Positions 3,983 through 42,743 of a stretch of DNA of 42,743 nucleotides are shown here, piece after piece; positions within the stretch are counted from its first letter, which is position 1; the number at the start of each line of letters is the position of its first letter. A program made the position numbers and the translations under genes. The notes beneath the pieces are model-generated. The model worked only from the letters and a program-made list of their open reading frames with translations. It had not been told where the DNA came from and did no database searches. Location: sequence record ON470579.1, one strand, 5' to 3'. This DNA is from Escherichia phage vB_EcoM-606R2.

Positions 3983-4333
3983 CTAGAAAATCTGCATAAG
4001 GGGGAGAAATCCCCCACCTGTAATAACATAACTACTAAAATTAACACCTTGTTCGCACAACTCCTCCACCAGCACGACAAGATGCCGCACACTGCGCCCC
4101 AGCCGATCCAGCTTCCAGACAACCAGAGTGTCACCTGCCGATAATGTCCTGAGCAGTTTTTTCAGTCCCGGCCTTTCGGACTTTGTACCGCTTATCTTGT
4201 CTTCAAAAAACAGCTCGCATCCTGCACAGTTCAGCGCATTACGTTGTAGATCTGTGTTCTGGTCATTTGTTGACACACGTACATAGCCAATAAGCATAGT
4301 GGATCCCTCTGACAAAAGCAGGAATGATGCCAT
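3983..4333 (-). pseudogene. Hin/Gin/Pin-family serine DNA invertase, 3'-truncated
   Basis: The N-terminus MLIGYVRVSTNDQNTDLQRNAL...DRLGRS carries the serine-recombinase catalytic motif. The ORF is only 116 aa and ends in unrelated residues; the HTH DNA-binding domain is missing. Confidence 0.75.
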
Positions 4334-35468: not shown

Positions 35469-36017
35469 ATGAAACTGAAGCTGAACAATGTTCGTCTGGC
35501 CTTCCCGTCTCTGTTTGAAGCTAAAACTGTAAACGGCGAAGGCGATCCGCGTTTCTCCGCAGTATTTTTAATGTCTCCCAAACACCCACAACTGGAAGAA
35601 ATCCGTAAAGCTATGAAGCAGGTAGCGAAGGAAAAATGGGGAGAGAAGTGGGAGCCCATTTATAACCAGCTGGAGAAAAAACTCAATCTGTGCCTGCATG
35701 ATGGTGATGAAAAAGCAGAGTATGAAGGCTTCCCCGGCAATTTCTTCCTGAATGCTGCTAACAAAGCGCGCCCAGCTGTTCTTGATCGCGATCGTTCGCC
35801 ACTTATTCAGGCTGACGGACGTCCTTATGCAGGGTGCTATGTAAACGCCGTTATCGATATCTGGGCACAGGACAATAATTTCGGTAAACGCATTAATGCC
35901 TCACTCGGCGGAGTCCAGTTCCTGCGAGACGGCGATGCATTCGCTGGCGGCGGAGTGGCAAGCGCTGACGATTTCGACGATATCAGCGAAGGTGCTGATG
36001 CTGAAGCACTAATTTAA
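35469..36017 (+). CDS. phage replication-module protein (DUF2815-like, probable ssDNA-binding)
   Basis: 182-aa ORF with an acidic C-terminal tail (DDFDDISEGADAE) typical of SSB-like proteins, following the nuclease. Confidence 0.5.
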   Translation: MKLKLNNVRLAFPSLFEAKTVNGEGDPRFSAVFLMSPKHPQLEEIRKAMKQVAKEKWGEKWEPIYNQLEKKLNLCLHDGDEKAEYEGFPGNFFLNAANKARPAVLDRDRSPLIQADGRPYAGCYVNAVIDIWAQDNNFGKRINASLGGVQFLRDGDAFAGGGVASADDFDDISEGADAEALI

Positions 36018-36038
36018 CCCTACTTCATAGACGCCCGG

Positions 36039-36057
36039 TTAAACACCGGGCTACTGA
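36039..36057. other. GC-rich stem-loop between convergent genes
   Basis: Inverted repeat GCCCGGT-TAAACA-CCGGGC; there is no clear U-tract on either strand. Confidence 0.4.
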
Positions 36058-36069
36058 TTAGGCGTATAA

Positions 36070-36699
36070 TCACTCAGGAATCTTAATCTTTCTCAATTCT
36101 TTATTTAGTTCACAGATCTTTTTCTTAGACGGGAAAGTATCATACATCCAAAAACCAACAGTCTCTAAAACTATTATCATAACCATATACACAAGATAAT
36201 TTAAAAGGCCTTCATTTTGCCCTATGGAAATAATGCAGATAATAGAAAAAAGGGTAAACAGCACAAAACACAGAAAGGAAAACAGACGACTAATAATAAA
36301 TAAAAAACCTGAAAAATCAACATTAATAAAAAACACTCCGTTATCTTTCTCTATATAATTCTGAAGCTTAATCAACTGATTTATATACTGTCTTTTTTCT
36401 AATCTATTGCAAATGTAAATAACATCTCTTCGGTTATAAGAGGATTGCAATTTCAGCGCATCACGAATAATTTTATCATTTATTCTTTTTTCTATGGCTT
36501 TCTTATCCTCCTTATCCAGATAACGTTCATACTTAATTAAATATAAAATTAACTTCTTGACATATTTAGGCTCTTTATACTTATAATTAAAAATGATCTT
36601 TCTTATCCAGACTCCCATAACAATCAAACATGAAAAAATATATCCAGCTATTTTCTCCAGATGCTCTGTATGGTCAATCAAGTATTGGATCATATGCAT
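36070..36699 (-). CDS. AT-rich integral membrane protein, antisense insertion in the replication module
   Basis: 209-aa ORF with one N-terminal and two or three C-terminal hydrophobic helices and a Lys/Tyr/Ile-rich composition; its GC content is markedly lower than the flanking genes. Confidence 0.6.
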   Translation of the reverse strand: MHMIQYLIDHTEHLEKIAGYIFSCLIVMGVWIRKIIFNYKYKEPKYVKKLILYLIKYERYLDKEDKKAIEKRINDKIIRDALKLQSSYNRRDVIYICNRLEKRQYINQLIKLQNYIEKDNGVFFINVDFSGFLFIISRLFSFLCFVLFTLFSIICIISIGQNEGLLNYLVYMVMIIVLETVGFWMYDTFPSKKKICELNKELRKIKIPE

Positions 36700-36745
36700 A
36701 ATTAATCTTTTAATCAGTTAATAGAATAAAAACCTAGGTAAACAC

Positions 36746-38809
36746 ATGTCCAATATACTATGGGGCGACCTGGAAACCTATTGCGAAATCCCTATTACGA
36801 ACGGTACCCATGCGTATGCCGAAGGCGTTGAAGTGATGCTTTTCGCATGGGCTATCAACGACGGGCCAGTAAACGTGTGGGATATCACTGCCGGTGGTGG
36901 TATTCCACACGGCTTATACGAAGCAATCGCAGACCCTGAAACCCTGCTTTATTTCCATAACTCTCACTTCGACCGCACCGTTCTGCGTTATGCAATGCCG
37001 CGACTGGCACCGCCAGTCGAACGTTGGCGCGACACGATGGTGCAGGCGCTGGCGCACGGTCTCCCGGGGTCTCTGGGGGAACTCTGCGAAGTACTAGGCG
37101 TCCCGCAAGACAAAGCGAAGGACAAAGAAGGTAAAGCGCTGATCCAGCTGTTCTGTAAGCCACGTCCGAAAAACAGCAAACTGCGTCGGGCCACCAGTAA
37201 AACCCATCCGGAAGAATGGCGGCGCTTTGTTGCTTACGCCGGACTGGATATCGAAGCAATGCGTGAAGTCTATAAACGTCTGCCGAAGTGGAATTATCAG
37301 GGGACAGAGCTGGCGCTCTGGCATCGTGATCAGCAGATCAACGACCGGGGCGTCTGCATGGACATGCAACTCGCGCGCGCTGCGATCGAAGCGGTAGACC
37401 AGGAGCAAAAGCGCCTGGCAAAGCGTACACAGGAAATGACTGATGGCGAAGTGCAGGCAGCCACACAACGGGACGCGTTGATTAAGCACATCGTTGAATC
37501 CTACGGTGTGGAGCTACCAGACATGCAACGCAGTACCCTGGAACGTCGTATGGCCGACCCCGATTTATCATCTGCCGTGAAAGAACTGCTGGCTATCCGC
37601 CTGCAAGCCAGTACTACCAGCACCAGTAAATACAAGGCACTGATGAAAGGCGTAAGCCACGACGGGCGCTTACGCGGTACGCTACAGTTCTGCGGGGCGT
37701 CACGTACCGGTCGTTGGGCCGGACGGCTATTCCAGCCCCAGAACCTTCCCCGCCCTTCACTAAAACAGGAACAAATAGACGAAGGCATCGAAGCACTGAA
37801 AGCCGGATGTGCAGACCTGCTGTTTGACAATATCATGGAACTAACCAGTTCAGCGTTACGTGGCTGCATTATCGCGCCAACAGGCAAAAAACTAGTGGTA
37901 AGTGACTTGTCAAACATTGAAGGCCGTATGCTGGCATGGCTGGCGGGAGAAGAATGGAAACTGAATGCATTCAGAGAGTATGACGCTGGAACGGGTCCGG
38001 ACTTATATAAACTGGCGTATGCAAAAGCTTTCGATATTGCACCAGATGATGTTGATAAACACATGCGTCAGATCGGTAAAGTCATGGAACTCGGTCTGGG
38101 TTATGGAGGTGGTGTATCGGCTTTCATCACTTTTGCTCTGGTTTACGGTCTCGATCTCGACGAGCTGGCGAACGCCGCACTGCCAAACATTCCCCGCGAT
38201 GTTATCCGCGAGGCAAAAAGCTGGTACGACGAATCGGTTAAGCGTAAGTCGACCTTTGGCCTGTCCGAGCGTGTATTCATCGCATGTGACTCGCTCAAGC
38301 GCCTGTGGCGCAGGGCGCACCCGGCGACCTGCGATTTCTGGTACGAGCTGGAGCGCACTGTCCGCACAGCAATCGCCACACCGCAAAAAACATTGTATTG
38401 CGGCTATCTTAAAATCCGACGTGATGGCGCGTGGCTGCGCATACAGCTACCATCCGGACGCGCTGTATGCTACCCGTCTCCGGTTATCGAACAAGGGAAT
38501 ATCACCTACATGGGTGTTAACTCTTATTCGCGTAAATGGCAACGACTCAAAACCTACGGCGGAAAGCTGGTGGAGAACGTCACCCAGGCGGCCGCCCGCG
38601 ACGTTCTAGCCAGAAACATGCCGCTGATCGAGGGTGCCGGTTACAGCATTGTGCTAACGGTACACGACGAGGTGATCACCGAAGCACCAGACACAGAAGA
38701 TTTCAACGATAAAGCGCTTTCCGCGCTTCTCTCCACTAACCCCGAATGGGCACCCGATATTCCGCTGAACGCTGGCGGCTTTGAGGCGTACCACTACAAA
38801 AAAGATTGA
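36746..38809 (+). CDS. DNA polymerase, family A, with 3'-5' exonuclease domain
   Basis: Exonuclease motif GDLET; polymerase motif A ([13 protein letters not shown]), motif B ([15 protein letters not shown]) and motif C (VHDE). Confidence 0.85.
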
Positions 38810-38873
38810 TATAACTCACCTTATCGAGCTATGGCGACATGCTGAATTCGAGTAAATTAAAGGAACAATACTT

Positions 38874-39635
38874 ATGCAGGAACTAACTGAAATGCCGATC
38901 AACTATCCATACCCGAGAGAATCTTTTCCTGACTTTTTGAGGGAGTGTGGGTTCACCAATTTTTCCCACGAACAGCGTGAGACTTATGACTGCTATCGTT
39001 TAACGAATGGCGTAATTGTTAACCTTTACACCACCCGGACCATTCAGTTTCAAGGGAACCCTCAAGAACGTCCCAATGTTGAAACTGCAATAATGTCCCA
39101 TTTAGGAACGCCCCCCACGGCAACACCACTAGCCGTAGAACAGCCATCTGAGCTTCCCAAAAAGATATTCATTGTTCACGGCCATGACCATACTGCAAAG
39201 GAACAACTTGAGCTAATCCTTCATAAACTTGGATTACCAGACCATTTCATTTTGCAGAATACGGGAGGGACTGGACTCACCATTATTGAAGAGCTTGAAC
39301 GTGAAATTGGGCAAGGACAAACTGCTACTCGTTTCGGGATTGTTCTTTTGACACCTGATGATATGGGATACTCAAAGCGCGCCGGTGAAGCAGAAATCCA
39401 ACCCCGCGCAAGACAGAACGTTGTACTCGAGATGGGTATGCTTCTTTCGTCCTTAGGGCGCAGCAATGTAGCAATCCTTCAGAAACAGCACCTAGAACAG
39501 CCTTCTGATGCTAACGGGATTTTGTATCTGAATTTCAACGACCATGTACGTGAAACAGTTCCTCGTCTAGTGCAACGGTTACAAAATTCTGGTTTCGAAT
39601 TTACACAAGCTCAAATAGCTAACGCTTCCTCGTAA
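38874..39635 (+). CDS. TIR-like domain protein (COG4271 / Cap12-type TIR-like fold) with an unknown N-terminal domain
   Basis: The C-terminal region has the pattern KIFIVHGHD ... FGIVLLTPDD ... RARQNVVLEMGMLL ... PSD, recalled as typical of the TIR-like nucleotide-binding family. Not confirmed by search. Confidence 0.55.
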   Translation: MQELTEMPINYPYPRESFPDFLRECGFTNFSHEQRETYDCYRLTNGVIVNLYTTRTIQFQGNPQERPNVETAIMSHLGTPPTATPLAVEQPSELPKKIFIVHGHDHTAKEQLELILHKLGLPDHFILQNTGGTGLTIIEELEREIGQGQTATRFGIVLLTPDDMGYSKRAGEAEIQPRARQNVVLEMGMLLSSLGRSNVAILQKQHLEQPSDANGILYLNFNDHVRETVPRLVQRLQNSGFEFTQAQIANASS

Positions 39636-39659
39636 TTACCCCCTTATTGTTGATTACAA

Positions 39660-39680
39660 CCCTGCATTGCGGGGTTTTTT
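39660..39680 (+). terminator. intrinsic terminator after the TIR-like gene
   Basis: Stem CCCTGC-ATT-GCGGGG followed by TTTTTT, 25 bp after the stop. Confidence 0.65.
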
Positions 39681-39870
39681 ATTTGGGAATAAAAACCCTA
39701 TGTCATTTAAATACCGGGACAGTCCGCTTTATTACCGGACTGCACGGGAGGCTTTGCGCCTTGAACAGTCCAGCGGGTACGACCGGGCGATGCAGGTCTG
39801 GGCCAAAGCGAACGTCGGTTTGATTTTTGTCTGATGCAGAACATGCGCGAAAAGCGTAAGGAGGTGGACG

Positions 39871-40065
39871 ATGTCTAATATCGATAATAAAGGTTGGGGG
39901 TTCCCCGCCCTGTCGAAAAAAGCACATTTCTTTAATTCGGGGGAAGCCATATCACTATGCGGAAAATGGATGTTCACAGGTATCAGGATTGACGAATGGC
40001 ATGACCATCCTGAGAACTGCGCTATCTGCATGAAGAAACGCAAAAAGCAGGAAGGCGAAAGCTAA
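39871..40065 (+). CDS. small Cys/His-rich protein (possible zinc ribbon)
   Basis: Strong ribosome-binding site AAGGAGG; stop overlaps the VRR-NUC start. Confidence 0.5.
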   Translation: MSNIDNKGWGFPALSKKAHFFNSGEAISLCGKWMFTGIRIDEWHDHPENCAICMKKRKKQEGES

Positions 40066-40349
40066 TGGCCTATGAACGTGAAAACCTAATCGAAAAGCAC
40101 CTCGTCGCTGAAGTAAAAAAGGCTGGCGGGGTTGCCTTTAAGTTCGTATCTCCCGGTCTCCGCTCGGTACCAGATCGCATTGTTCTGCTACCCGGCGGTC
40201 GCATCGTCTTTGTCGAATGCAAAGCACCAGGCAAACCACCACGACCTGATCAGTTGCGCGAGCATGAACGTCTGCGAAAACTGGGCTTTACCGTGGTAGT
40301 ACTGGATAGTAAGGAGCTTTCATGTATATTAGGCAAAAAATTACAATAG
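40065..40349 (+). CDS. VRR-NUC domain nuclease
   Basis: 94-aa ORF with the PDRIVLLPGGRIVFVECKAPG pattern characteristic of VRR-NUC as recalled. Confidence 0.65.
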   Translation: MAYERENLIEKHLVAEVKKAGGVAFKFVSPGLRSVPDRIVLLPGGRIVFVECKAPGKPPRPDQLREHERLRKLGFTVVVLDSKELSCILGKKLQ

Positions 40350-40364
40350 GAGTCTGTGTAAGCT

Positions 40365-40856
40365 ATGGCTAAGCAACAAACGAAAGAAATAAACCAAGAT
40401 GATGTAAAAGACAACAAAAATATGCCACCTCATATATGCGGCATTATTATGCCAATTGCGGACATAGAAGGTTATCCCACTGGACATTGGAGAAATGTTC
40501 ATGACATTATTTGTGAAGCATCAAATGATGCCGGATTCAAGGCAAATTTGGTAAGTTCAGATGATGATGTTGCAGTAATACAAAAACGAATTGTTCAAAA
40601 TCTTTATGAAAACCCCATAGTTGTTTGCGATATAAGTGCTCGAAACGCTAATGTAATGTTTGAATTAGGAATGCGTCTCGCATTTGACAAACCGACCGTA
40701 ATTATTAAGGACGAGCGCACTCCTTATAGCTTTGACATTTCATCAATTGAACATTTAGAGTACCCTTCGGATTTAAGATACCAATCAATCAATCAATTTA
40801 TTCAAAGAAAGACTTGCGAGCAAGATAAAAGAAACATATTTAAAGTCAGTAACTGA
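40365..40856 (+). CDS. TIR-like domain protein, N-terminal portion of a frameshift-split gene
   Basis: AT-rich ORF with the pattern PIVVCDISARNANVMFELGMRLAFDKPTVII ... PSD, parallel to the upstream TIR-like protein. The frame ends 19 codons after a (CAAT)4 tract. Confidence 0.55.
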   Translation: MAKQQTKEINQDDVKDNKNMPPHICGIIMPIADIEGYPTGHWRNVHDIICEASNDAGFKANLVSSDDDVAVIQKRIVQNLYENPIVVCDISARNANVMFELGMRLAFDKPTVIIKDERTPYSFDISSIEHLEYPSDLRYQSINQFIQRKTCEQDKRNIFKVSN

Positions 40857-41286
40857 TCCTGAATACACAACATTCCTCAAACATTTTGGCACTTTCAAAG
40901 TTGCACAACTAGACCAGAAAGAAGTATCAGAAACTGAGTATCTGGCATCTGAGATTAAAGATATCAAATCATTATTGATATCTCTTAGGGCAACAGCAAC
41001 GACAAAATCCAGATTTTTCGACTCACCGAAAAATTACTCGCAGCAGGAAATTGACAACTCTGTAGATATTATTAAAAATGGAGTTGCCAGTTATACTATA
41101 AGGAGTGAAGGATTTAGTATATCAAAATCAGCACTAGAAAAGTTACGCCAAAGACTACACAACGCAGGATTTCAAGTCGAGCAAATAGTATTGACAGGAA
41201 AAGAAGTAATTATTCATCTGTCATCACCTTTAATAAATGAAGAAGAAAATATTTTTAAAGATGCAATAGTAACAGCACTATTATAA
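40777..41286 (+). CDS. C-terminal portion of the frameshift-split gene (no ATG; open from 40777)
   Basis: A 170-codon open frame with protein-like composition. The track starts it at a TTG at 40975, but it reads continuously from the repeat tract. Confidence 0.5.
   Translation, partial: DTNQSINLFKERLASKIKETYLKSVTDPEYTTFLKHFGTFKVAQLDQKEVSETEYLASEIKDIKSLLISLRATATTKSRFFDSPKNYSQQEIDNSVDIIKNGVASYTIRSEGFSISKSALEKLRQRLHNAGFQVEQIVLTGKEVIIHLSSPLINEEENIFKDAIVTALL
40782..40797 (+). repeat. tetranucleotide repeat (CAAT)4 at the frame-switch point
   Basis: Read directly from the sequence. The +1 frame opens at 40777 and the zero frame closes at 40856. Confidence 0.9.
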
Positions 41287-41298
41287 ATAACATTTTTA

Positions 41299-41334
41299 AA
41301 ACAACAAAAGGTCTAAATTGGCCTTTTGTTGTTT
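41299..41334 (+). other. 13-bp-stem hairpin bounding the AT-rich cassette (possible terminator)
   Basis: Arms AAACAACAAAAGG and CCTTTTGTTGTTT with a 10-nt loop, immediately before the helicase ribosome-binding site. Confidence 0.4.
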
Positions 41335-41348
41335 AGGAGCCATATTAT

Positions 41349-42743
41349 ATGCCCCCAAAATATATACCTCGCCCCTACCAAGTTCTCATTATCAACCACG
41401 AAACCGAAACCCTGCGCGGCAACATCTGGGCGGGGATGGGAATGGGTAAAACCGTGGCAACGCTCACTGCGCTGGAAGATCTCTTTATGGCAGGGGCAGA
41501 AACATGCCCCGCACTGGTCCTCGCGCCGCTGCGCGTGGCTGCCAGCACATGGCCGGATGAAGCACTGAAGTGGGGACATTTGCGCAATATCGAGGTGCAG
41601 CCAATTATTGGTAATGCCAAAGCGCGCTCTATGGCGCTGACGAACAGCAACGCAAGCGTGTTCACCATCAACTACGATAACCTTGTCTGGCTGATTGAAG
41701 AATTGGGAGAACGATGGCCGTTCGGTACTGTCATTCCAGATGAAAGCACCCGGCTAAAATCCTTCCGGCTGCGCGGTGGTGGTAAGCGCGCGGCGGCGCT
41801 GGGCAAAGTGGCGCATAAGTATGTCCGGCGCTGGATAAATCTCACCGGTACGCCAGCACCGAACGGCCTGGTAGATTTGTGGGGACAATCGTGGTTTGTG
41901 GACCAGGGGCAACGTCTCGGGCGCACTTACGGCGCGTTTACCTCACGCTGGTTCAACTCGATACAGTTTCCGGGGCAGAGCTGGACCAAACTGGAGCCTT
42001 TTGCTCACTCACAGGGTGAAATACAGCGAGCGTTAGCCGATGTAACCCTCTCGCTGGATGCGGCCGACTGGTTCGATATCAAAGACCCCATCCATAACGT
42101 AATCCGCGTGGATATGCCACCGAAGGCCCGTCAGCAGTATCGTGAAATGGAAAAGGAAATGTTCCTCGAGCTGAATGGCGAAGGCATCGAAGCACCGAAC
42201 GCCGCGGCAAAGACACTGAAGTGTCTGCAAATCGCCAGCGGCGCAGTATACACAGATGACACCGGAAGTTGGTCAGAACTGCATGACACCAAACTACAGG
42301 CGCTGGACAGCATACTGACCGAAGCAGCTGGCGCACCTGTGCTGGTTGCTTATCACTGGAAACACGATCTTGAACGCTTGCTTAAAGCATTCCCTCGCGG
42401 TCGTCACCTCGACCAGGATCCACAGACACTGCGCGACTGGAATTCCGGAAAGATTCCTGTTCTCTTTGCACACCCAGCCAGCGCGGGCCACGGCCTGAAC
42501 ATGCAGGACGGCGGAAATATACTGGTATTTTTCTCACACTGGTGGGACCTGGAGCAATATCAGCAAATTATTGAACGTATCGGCCCCACCAGGCAGATAC
42601 AGGCCGGACACAATCGTCCGGTATTTATTCACCACATTATTGCTGCCGACACTATGGATGAAATGGTGATGGAGCGGCGCAACTCAAAACGAACAGTGCA
42701 GGACATCCTGCTCGATGCCATGAAAAAGAGAGGTATAGCATGA
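41349..42743 (+). CDS. SNF2/DEAD-like DNA helicase
   Basis: Motif I GMGKT, a PRPYQ-type Q motif, motif II DEST and C-terminal helicase motifs; ribosome-binding site AGGAG. Confidence 0.75.
   Translation: MPPKYIPRPYQVLIINHETETLRGNIWAGMGMGKTVATLTALEDLFMAGAETCPALVLAPLRVAASTWPDEALKWGHLRNIEVQPIIGNAKARSMALTNSNASVFTINYDNLVWLIEELGERWPFGTVIPDESTRLKSFRLRGGGKRAAALGKVAHKYVRRWINLTGTPAPNGLVDLWGQSWFVDQGQRLGRTYGAFTSRWFNSIQFPGQSWTKLEPFAHSQGEIQRALADVTLSLDAADWFDIKDPIHNVIRVDMPPKARQQYREMEKEMFLELNGEGIEAPNAAAKTLKCLQIASGAVYTDDTGSWSELHDTKLQALDSILTEAAGAPVLVAYHWKHDLERLLKAFPRGRHLDQDPQTLRDWNSGKIPVLFAHPASAGHGLNMQDGGNILVFFSHWWDLEQYQQIIERIGPTRQIQAGHNRPVFIHHIIAADTMDEMVMERRNSKRTVQDILLDAMKKRGIA

Follow-up and report, generated by a model that had tools for sequence, protein, structure and literature searches.

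The Locus and its Genes

The 42,743-nucleotide (nt) sequence of Escherichia phage vB_EcoM-606R2 (ON470579.1), the whole of which is referred to here as the window, carries on its + strand a gene (38874-39635; ATG start, TAA stop) encoding a 253-amino acid (aa) protein of the PDC-S35 family, in which a TBP-like N-terminal domain (hereafter the N-domain) is connected by a linker to a C-terminal TIR domain. This gene, referred to below as the TIR gene, is the subject of the present analysis. Its annotation as encoding a TIR or TIR-like domain protein exists already in both GenBank and RefSeq, and its membership in the PDC-S35 candidate family is likewise known; new are the identification of the N-terminal module, the finding that this module is fused to other defense effectors, and the description of the prophage hotspot in which the gene resides.

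To the left of the TIR gene lies a gene for a family-A DNA polymerase (PolA; 36746-38809, +), a 687-aa open reading frame (ORF) annotated as DNA polymerase and belonging to the prophage replication operon, while to the right lies the remnant of an ANR-family regulator gene (39701-39834, +; the truncated gene spans 39701-39879), designated a frameshifted pseudogene in RefSeq; a 64-aa ORF and a VRR-NUC gene complete the immediate neighborhood. The space between polymerase and remnant is filled by an accessory cassette (38810-39700, +) composed of a spacer with a ribosome-binding site, the TIR gene, and a terminator, with the sequence AGGA located 9 nt 5' of the ATG. A 253-aa frame of lower guanine-plus-cytosine (GC) content than its neighbors had been claimed at this position in the original prediction, which was made from the sequence alone, and this is borne out: the GC content of the ORF is 45.1%, as compared to 54.1% for the PolA gene, 54.6% for the SNF2 helicase gene, and 49.2% for the window as a whole.

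The DNA of the window corresponds to a prophage of E. coli. It is a temperate element that carries a repressor and a cro-like gene, a Q antiterminator, genes for lysis, and structural genes of the myovirus type. Its reverse complement shares 99.9% identity with Escherichia phage vB_EcoM-611R5 (ON470588), a phage on which no papers were found, and the segment 38300-40350 is 100% identical to prophages of several complete E. coli chromosomes. In the chromosomal copies, an integrase is encoded just past the SNF2 gene.

Precise Insertion and Variable Occupancy of the Cassette

Comparison of the locus among related prophages locates the boundaries of the cassette. Homology ends exactly at the PolA stop codon (38807-38809), and in strains UPEC957C and 96_1414P the site is empty, with the ANR gene beginning 5 nt past the PolA stop. 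The sequence with which the ANR gene starts at these empty sites recurs in the window at 39701, just past the terminator. Because homology breaks at the PolA stop and the ANR start reappears at 39701, the insert can be delimited to about 38810-39700, and the earlier suggestion that the gene was inserted between the polymerase and the next gene is thereby confirmed. Neither direct nor inverted repeats were found flanking the cassette, and no Rfam family was matched anywhere in the window. The ANR gene is intact (71-76 aa) in relatives without this TIR allele, as well as in prophage L006, which carries a second allele of the TIR gene.

How frequently the site is occupied was surveyed in 5,426 complete E. 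coli genomes, 159 of which carry the PolA 3' end. Among the about 159 related prophages so identified, 37 harbor the allele found in the window and a further 10 harbor the second allele, the product of which shares 72% protein identity with that of the window gene. Beyond these genomes, all 39 of the 39 IMG/VR loci containing a full-length relative place the gene about 60 nt past a PolA of the same family, and a prophage of Serratia marcescens carries a TIR gene at the equivalent position. The TIR gene is therefore syntenic wherever it is present, yet it is present in only about 30% of relatives. Universal conservation within the replication operon, named beforehand as an observation that would refute the proposal, is not what is seen, given about 47 carriers among 159 and the existence of empty sites.

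The cassette contains an intrinsic-terminator-like hairpin followed by a T-run (39658-39686, +; AACCCTGCA-TTG-CGGGGTT), recovered by a terminator scan, by folding, and by the presence of a homologous hairpin in L006. The hairpin itself (39658-39676) begins 23 nt past the stop codon and consists of an 8-base-pair stem with five G-C pairs and a 3-nt loop, trailed by the tail TTTTATTTGG, and it is the sole + strand terminator-like site near the TIR gene. Considered by itself the hairpin is not statistically exceptional: the scan returned five terminator-like sites as compared to 8.1 +/- 3.1 in shuffled sequences, and the predicted folding energy of -13.4 kcal/mol corresponds to z = -1.2. The 72%-identical allele of L006 is also trailed by a homologous hairpin and T-run (L006 4351-4380), and it is because of this conservation, together with its position, that the terminator is accepted as a part of the cassette. 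The "clean intrinsic terminator" of the original prediction hence exists and has a counterpart behind the second allele, while falling short of significance against shuffled sequence.

A similarly divided outcome applies to the proposal that the gene has the layout of a moron. Presence or absence at a precise site, deviant GC content, and a terminator of its own all agree with that layout; a promoter of its own does not figure among these features, as a crude consensus scan detected no sigma-70-like promoter in the 64-nt spacer (38810-38873), and reading of positions 38780-38873 by eye revealed weak matches only. The TIR gene and the replication operon share a strand.

The TIR Domain

The C-terminal portion of the protein (aa 96-253; 39159-39632, +) is a TIR domain of the CAP12/PycTIR type. 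The match to Pfam family PF10137 scores 108.4 bits, the cut-off being 24.7 (E 2.9e-31), and it pairs aa 97-222 with profile positions 1-118 of 119; a phmmer search aligns the domain with the Cap12 protein of known structure 7un8 (E 4e-4). The TIR-like signature claimed for the C-terminus is thus real and far beyond chance, and both homology search and structure prediction return a flavodoxin-like TIR fold, the absence of which had been listed as grounds for abandoning the proposal.

The predicted active site comprises R180, N182, E186 (codon 39429-39431), and D212. These four residues align to R78, N80, E84, and D110 of SfSTING and are invariant in 46 homologs, so the active-site set is intact. 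In SfSTING, the active site is formed by R78, N80, and the catalytic E84 together with D110 contributed by the opposing subunit (PMC9402430). In addition, strand C and helix C are joined in the structural model of the window protein by way of a beta-hairpin (its strands at 163-165 and 176-178), located where SfSTING has its CC-loop insertion. By its residues, then, the TIR domain is inferred to be catalytically competent and, like that of TIR-STING, to be active only when TIR domains are packed together.

The N-terminal Domain

The N-domain (aa 9-78; 38898-39107, +) is a separate unit with a beta-alpha-beta4-alpha topology that resembles RNase HIII's N-domain as well as the TBP domains of RnlA. 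It is predicted with a local distance difference test score (pLDDT) of about 90, and modeling of the domain by itself yields a pLDDT of 86.5 and a predicted template modeling score of 0.70. The linker (aa 79-95; 39108-39158, +) that connects it to the TIR domain is variable and probably disordered (pLDDT 33; mean pairwise identity 14%), and the protein as a whole has a two-domain anatomy.

Four independent lines of evidence converge on one fold for the N-domain, that of the RNase HIII N-domain and the RnlA TBP domains. Firstly, the model is that of a monopartite TBP-like fold. Secondly, a profile built from 26 N-domains finds as its best two PDB sequences RNase HIII (3vn5; E 0.076) and the RnlA homolog LsoA (E 0.18), and the alignment between this profile and the PDB sequences spans the motif ...Y-x-TG-x-x-x-QG. 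Thirdly, when the same 26 members are compared to Pfam, sub-threshold matches to RnlA_toxin are obtained for 8 of the 26 (best E 1e-4) and to DUF3378, the RNase HIII N-domain, for two. Fourthly, one homolog, P0104, has a precomputed RnlA_toxin match. Because all of the sequence-level evidence is sub-threshold, the claim made here is one of likeness at the level of the fold and not of family membership. A Foldseek comparison of the N-domain to viral predicted structures produced no match at E <= 0.001.

The likeness extends to residues of potential functional importance. Within the N-terminal domain of Ta-RNase H3, RNA/DNA hybrids are read by an open sheet face on which Glu27 and Gly52 contact the 2'-OH groups while His28 and Tyr43 stack on deoxyribose, and the isolated domain binds hybrids only (PMC4132731). 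In the PDC-S35 N-domain, an aromatic residue at position 52 (46/46) and G61 (46/46) lie nine residues apart, a spacing equal to that of Tyr43 and Gly52, two of the four hybrid-reading residues of Ta-RNase H3. Altogether the conserved positions of the domain are R/K42, G46, N50, aromatic 52, T54, T56, Q58, Q60, and G61, and the conservation of R/K42, N50, T54, T56, Q58, and Q60 follows an alternating pattern along two strands. Taken as a whole, the N-domain diverges rapidly: mean pairwise identity within PDC-S35 is 36% for the N-domain as compared to 73% for the TIR domain, and the N-domains of the two E. coli alleles are only about 47% identical, whereas the flanking PolA sequences are 90-98% identical.

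Occurrence of the N-domain in Other Proteins

When a profile of the N-domain was run against 1.84 billion cluster representatives, 861 proteins were matched at E <= 1e-3, and the architectures described here are those of the top 150 of these matches. The N-domain is fused to an anti-phage dCTP deaminase in the 617-aa protein P0223 (PADLOC dCTPase, E 7e-173; Pfam dCMP_cyt_deam_1), and further fusions of this kind, with the N-domain at the N-terminus, are P0218, P0189, and P0178. In P0215, the N-domain is joined to a protein with about seven hydrophobic (transmembrane) segments, tandem N-domains are found in P0187 and P0163, and recurrent proteins of about 160 aa (P0153-like) combine the N-domain with a small C-terminal domain without known function. 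A word-indexed protein search using the N-domain of P0223 gave no matches.

Its fusion to a TIR domain, to an anti-phage dCTP deaminase, and to an effector that crosses the membrane several times suggests that the N-domain is a sensor module of a portable kind. The exchange of effectors together with the fast divergence of the N-domain argues in the same direction, since both are expected of a sensory or regulatory module within a conflict system. The suggestion, made at the outset, that the N-terminal residues could constitute a sensor domain has accordingly gained strength, both from the recognition of a separate, confidently predicted TBP-like fold and from the fusion of that fold to other defense effectors.

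Family Membership and Standalone Status

The window protein belongs to PDC-S35, as evidenced by a match to PADLOC model PDLC05003 in which aa 10-253 cover profile positions 3-245 of 245 (E 1.2e-108), and it also matches phrog_16442, a family of unknown function (E 7.5e-107). PDC families were predicted on the basis of their embedding in BREX, DISARM, or type I restriction-modification loci (Payne et al., 2024, bioRxiv 10.1101/2024.01.29.577857). In total, 2,703 homologs were collected from Enterobacterales, Vibrio, Halomonadaceae, Guyparkeria, and Acidobacteria-like metagenome-assembled genomes, where they reside on islands that resemble integrative and conjugative elements (ICE-like), are chromosomal, or bear integrases, near integrases, Mrr, and PemK and beside insertion sequence elements. 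The neighbors change from one context to the next (the prophage, a Vibrio ICE-like element, an integrase/Mrr island, and Guyparkeria), and none is conserved; the gene stands alone, without an obligate partner, in agreement with the single-gene definition of PDC-S35. Among literature mentioning PF10137 or TBP-like domains, none was found that describes an architecture in which a TBP-like N-domain is followed by a TIR domain.

Several more elaborate arrangements were considered and rejected. CBASS membership is contradicted by the lack of a CD-NTase and of a STING or SAVED cyclic-nucleotide sensor domain, the non-TIR part of the protein being TBP-like; membership among the Pycsar PycTIR proteins by the lack of a pyrimidine cyclase gene and of a domain binding cyclic nucleoside monophosphates; and membership in Thoeris by the lack of ThsA or another partner effector. 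A PADLOC scan of 57 annotated prophage proteins found no cyclase and no ThsA, and where the protein matches PADLOC models for CBASS TIR effectors and for PycTIR, the TIR domain alone is covered. All three systems are rejected because the prophage lacks a cyclase, a cyclic-nucleotide sensor domain, and ThsA, and the nucleotide-signaling (Thoeris-like) role that had been offered as one possible function is consequently unlikely, there being no partner effector in the prophage. The proposition that the protein works like the TIR of TIR-STING stands.

Two simpler forms of partnership were likewise set aside. A small upstream partner gene is not present in the window, and the 86-aa and 70-aa ORFs that precede homologs in two other contexts are unrelated to one another. 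Pairing with a homotypic N-domain adaptor encoded in cis is excluded in the window, which has a single copy of the N-domain.

Cargo Slots of the Replication Module and Other Features of the Prophage

The cassette occupies one of four slots in the replication module, the order of which is DUF2800, DUF2815, slot 1, PolA, slot 2, ANR, slot 3, VRR-NUC, slot 4, and SNF2. All four are hotspots for variable cargo, and the prophage family to whose replication operon they belong is common in E. coli and Serratia. In relatives of the window, slot 1 is occupied by a SIR2 protein, Nmad5, DUF4145 (HEPN-like), or genes without known function; slot 2 by the TIR gene or by others, such as an ORF without known function together with YfbU; slot 3 by DUF7446, an S-adenosylmethionine (SAM) methyltransferase, or DUF4406; and slot 4 by BstA (PADLOC E 1.4e-115, on the opposite strand), Dcm, or DUF6338.

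In the window itself, slot 1 holds a 209-aa ORF (36070-36699, -; 29% GC) with a hydrophobic C-terminal half that belongs to phrog_10579, of unknown function. Slot 4, between VRR-NUC and SNF2, holds a second TIR-like cargo gene (40365-41286, +; 34% GC), for which weak matches of a TIR-like or nucleoside-deoxyribosyltransferase-like character were obtained (PADLOC TIR effector, E 1e-6; Pfam, sub-threshold; phrog_3634). Relative to ON470588, this second gene contains a 4-base-pair duplication of CAAT at 40782-40785 (CAATCAATCAAT against CAATCAAT), which breaks up the 305-aa gene of ON470588, leaving two ORFs of 163 and 103 aa, and which is the sole difference between the two sequences within 36000-42743. 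The duplication may reflect either slippage at a short tetranucleotide repeat or a difference in assembly.

Two further features lie away from the replication module, at about 1-2254 and about 3983-4297 of the window as converted from the ON470588 annotation. The start of the record includes apparent host chromosomal genes, namely tadA, pgpC, and a yfhH-like regulator, so that the true end of the prophage lies inside the window. A DNA invertase adjoins oppositely oriented tail-fiber and assembly genes, an arrangement that suggests an invertible host-range segment.

A Probable Abortive-infection Effector and the Alternatives

The observations described above are probably best explained by regarding the TIR gene as optional cargo of a temperate E. 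coli phage, with a product that belongs to the PDC-S35 candidate family and acts alone as an abortive-infection effector against phages. We infer hydrolysis of nicotinamide adenine dinucleotide (NAD+), a packing of TIR domains that is driven by a ligand, the nature of that ligand, and an abortive outcome, in the following sequence. Within a resting lysogen, the protein would be monomeric or loosely associated and inactive. Upon infection by another phage, the N-domain would bind a trigger. If the only two characterized homologous domains are a guide, this is most likely a nucleic acid, for instance structured RNA or an RNA/DNA hybrid, with a phage protein as the main alternative. Several copies of the protein assembled on one ligand would then bring their TIR domains together, and the resulting composite active site, in which E186 would act in cis and D212 in trans, would deplete NAD+ and abort the infection.

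A number of points weigh against this account. With regard to the protein, the TIR part of the AlphaFold model, built with 46 homologs, is of moderate confidence (pLDDT 48-87), and the N-domain, unlike typical nucleic-acid binders, has a net charge that is about neutral (-2 in the window protein; range -6 to +4). With regard to expression, the scan brought no promoter to light and the gene runs in the same direction as the replication genes, so that the protein may be made only during lytic growth, induction, or infection. The location of a terminator in mid-operon, upstream of the conserved VRR-NUC and SNF2 genes, implies in turn that read-through or antitermination takes place. Furthermore, a sensor of replication intermediates could be triggered by the replication of the prophage itself, and the rapid divergence of the N-domain is explained by a protein trigger no less readily than by a nucleic-acid structure that does not vary. 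Lastly, the searchable literature yielded no paper that mentions PDC-S35, and hence neither an experiment on one of its members nor an account of its mechanism or N-domain; PDC-S35 is not among the systems included in a study testing PDC systems.

The divergence of the N-domain bears most directly upon the alternative that survives best, namely that the protein is a defensive TIR NADase whose N-domain recognizes a phage protein, structural or replicative, as SpbK does with the SPbeta portal protein YonE. We consider this alternative rather unlikely, though deserving of serious attention. The only two characterized homologous domains bind nucleic acids, the aromatic-x8-Gly element with which RNase H3 recognizes hybrids is conserved, and the alternation of N50, Y52, T56, Q58, and Q60 on two strands would fit the open sheet face of RNase H3.

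The absence of a detectable promoter from a gene that lies within the replication operon, and on the same strand, is in keeping with a different possibility, in which the protein serves the phage itself as a lytic factor for counter-defense or host takeover, for example by destroying or sequestering the immune nucleotides or NAD+ of the host, and is co-expressed with the replication genes. The likely anti-restriction and DNA-modification genes (Nmad5, Dcm, SAM methyltransferases) in the slots of relatives are in keeping with it as well. Such a role is nevertheless improbable in view of the 2,703 homologs, which are widespread outside of phages on ICE-like and chromosomal islands, the definition of PDC-S35 by its embedding in defense loci, the presence of the same N-domain in anti-phage dCTP deaminases, and the occurrence of a bona fide defense gene, bstA, in the same set of slots. 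Least probable of all is a role in phage DNA metabolism, in which the protein would process nucleotides or nucleosides in the manner of nucleoside 2-deoxyribosyltransferase or the MilB hydrolases while its N-domain tethers it to replication intermediates. Against this role, the matches that score best, in sequence as well as in structure, are to TIR domains of NADases, the SfSTING residue set being complete; about 70% of related prophages do without the gene; and PDC-S35 homologs occur in many non-phage contexts.

The reading of the TIR gene as an abortive-infection effector admits of a broader and considerably more speculative extension. According to this extension, which is put forward tentatively and which we would not expect to hold in full, the N-domain, of about 70 residues, would be a widespread portable immune sensor for infection-specific nucleic acid, not recognized until now and descended from the fold of the RNase HIII N-domain and the RnlA TBP domains; the suicide effectors coupled to it, whether TIR NADase, dCTP deaminase, or membrane protein, would be interchangeable, and PDC-S35 would be a minimal, guide-free counterpart of SPARTA. 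As ligand one may think of structured or labile RNA or of an RNA/DNA hybrid, and a duplex would scaffold the oligomerization of TIR domains, all within a single 253-aa chain.

Although single-protein TIR defenses are common, what they sense is mostly unknown, and PDC-S35, with its thousands of members, now gains a testable anatomy in the form of residues E186, D212, Y52, and G61 and a candidate class of ligand. If the N-domain is indeed a sensor shared among TIR, dCTP deaminase, and membrane effectors, it would add a new sensing module of general use to bacterial immunity. The four cargo slots, for their part, offer a convenient search ground for more defense and counter-defense genes.

Comparison with Known Systems

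Among described systems, the closest is PDC-S35 itself, to the hidden Markov model of which the protein is matched over its full length and which, as here, consists of a single gene. PDC-S35 is a prediction of guilt by embedding, and the window gene differs from the defining cases in being located in a prophage replication operon rather than in a restriction-modification or BREX locus. The likeness to the Cap12 TIR-STING proteins (SfSTING, PDB 7UN8; also 9LMQ) is confined to part of the molecule: the window protein has neither a STING domain nor a CD-NTase, its sensor is N-terminal and TBP-like, and the NCBIfam Cap12 models return 34.8 and 30.5 bits as compared to a cut-off of 450. The N-domain of RNase HIII (DUF3378) and TBP1/TBP2 of RnlA and LsoA resemble it in fold, at a sub-threshold level of sequence likeness; there the domain is carried by an RNase H or a HEPN protein and here by a TIR protein. 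From SpbK and other standalone abortive-infection proteins that join a sensor to a TIR domain, the window protein differs in both its N-terminal domain and its TIR subfamily.

In SPARTA, which pairs a short prokaryotic Argonaute with a TIR-APAZ protein, an RNA-DNA duplex brings about TIR oligomerization and, in turn, NAD+ depletion. The same logic would apply to the window protein only if its N-domain reads RNA/DNA hybrids, and the analogy is purely hypothetical; Argonaute, the APAZ domain, and the guide RNA are all missing from what is here a single chain of 253 aa.

Some members of the anti-phage dCTP deaminases (PADLOC dCTPase; AvcD-type), namely P0223, P0218, P0189, and P0178, have the N-domain in common with PDC-S35, which indicates a shared sensing or regulatory module. 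The effector of these proteins acts by nucleotide depletion through deamination, and no deaminase is encoded in the window. A final parallel is provided by TirB and TirD of Dictyostelium, in which TIR domains of the PF10137 clade, derived from bacteria, are preceded by a small N-terminal "partial KH domain" (bioRxiv 10.64898/2026.04.30.722052); this N-terminal domain could be the same TBP-like module as that of PDC-S35.

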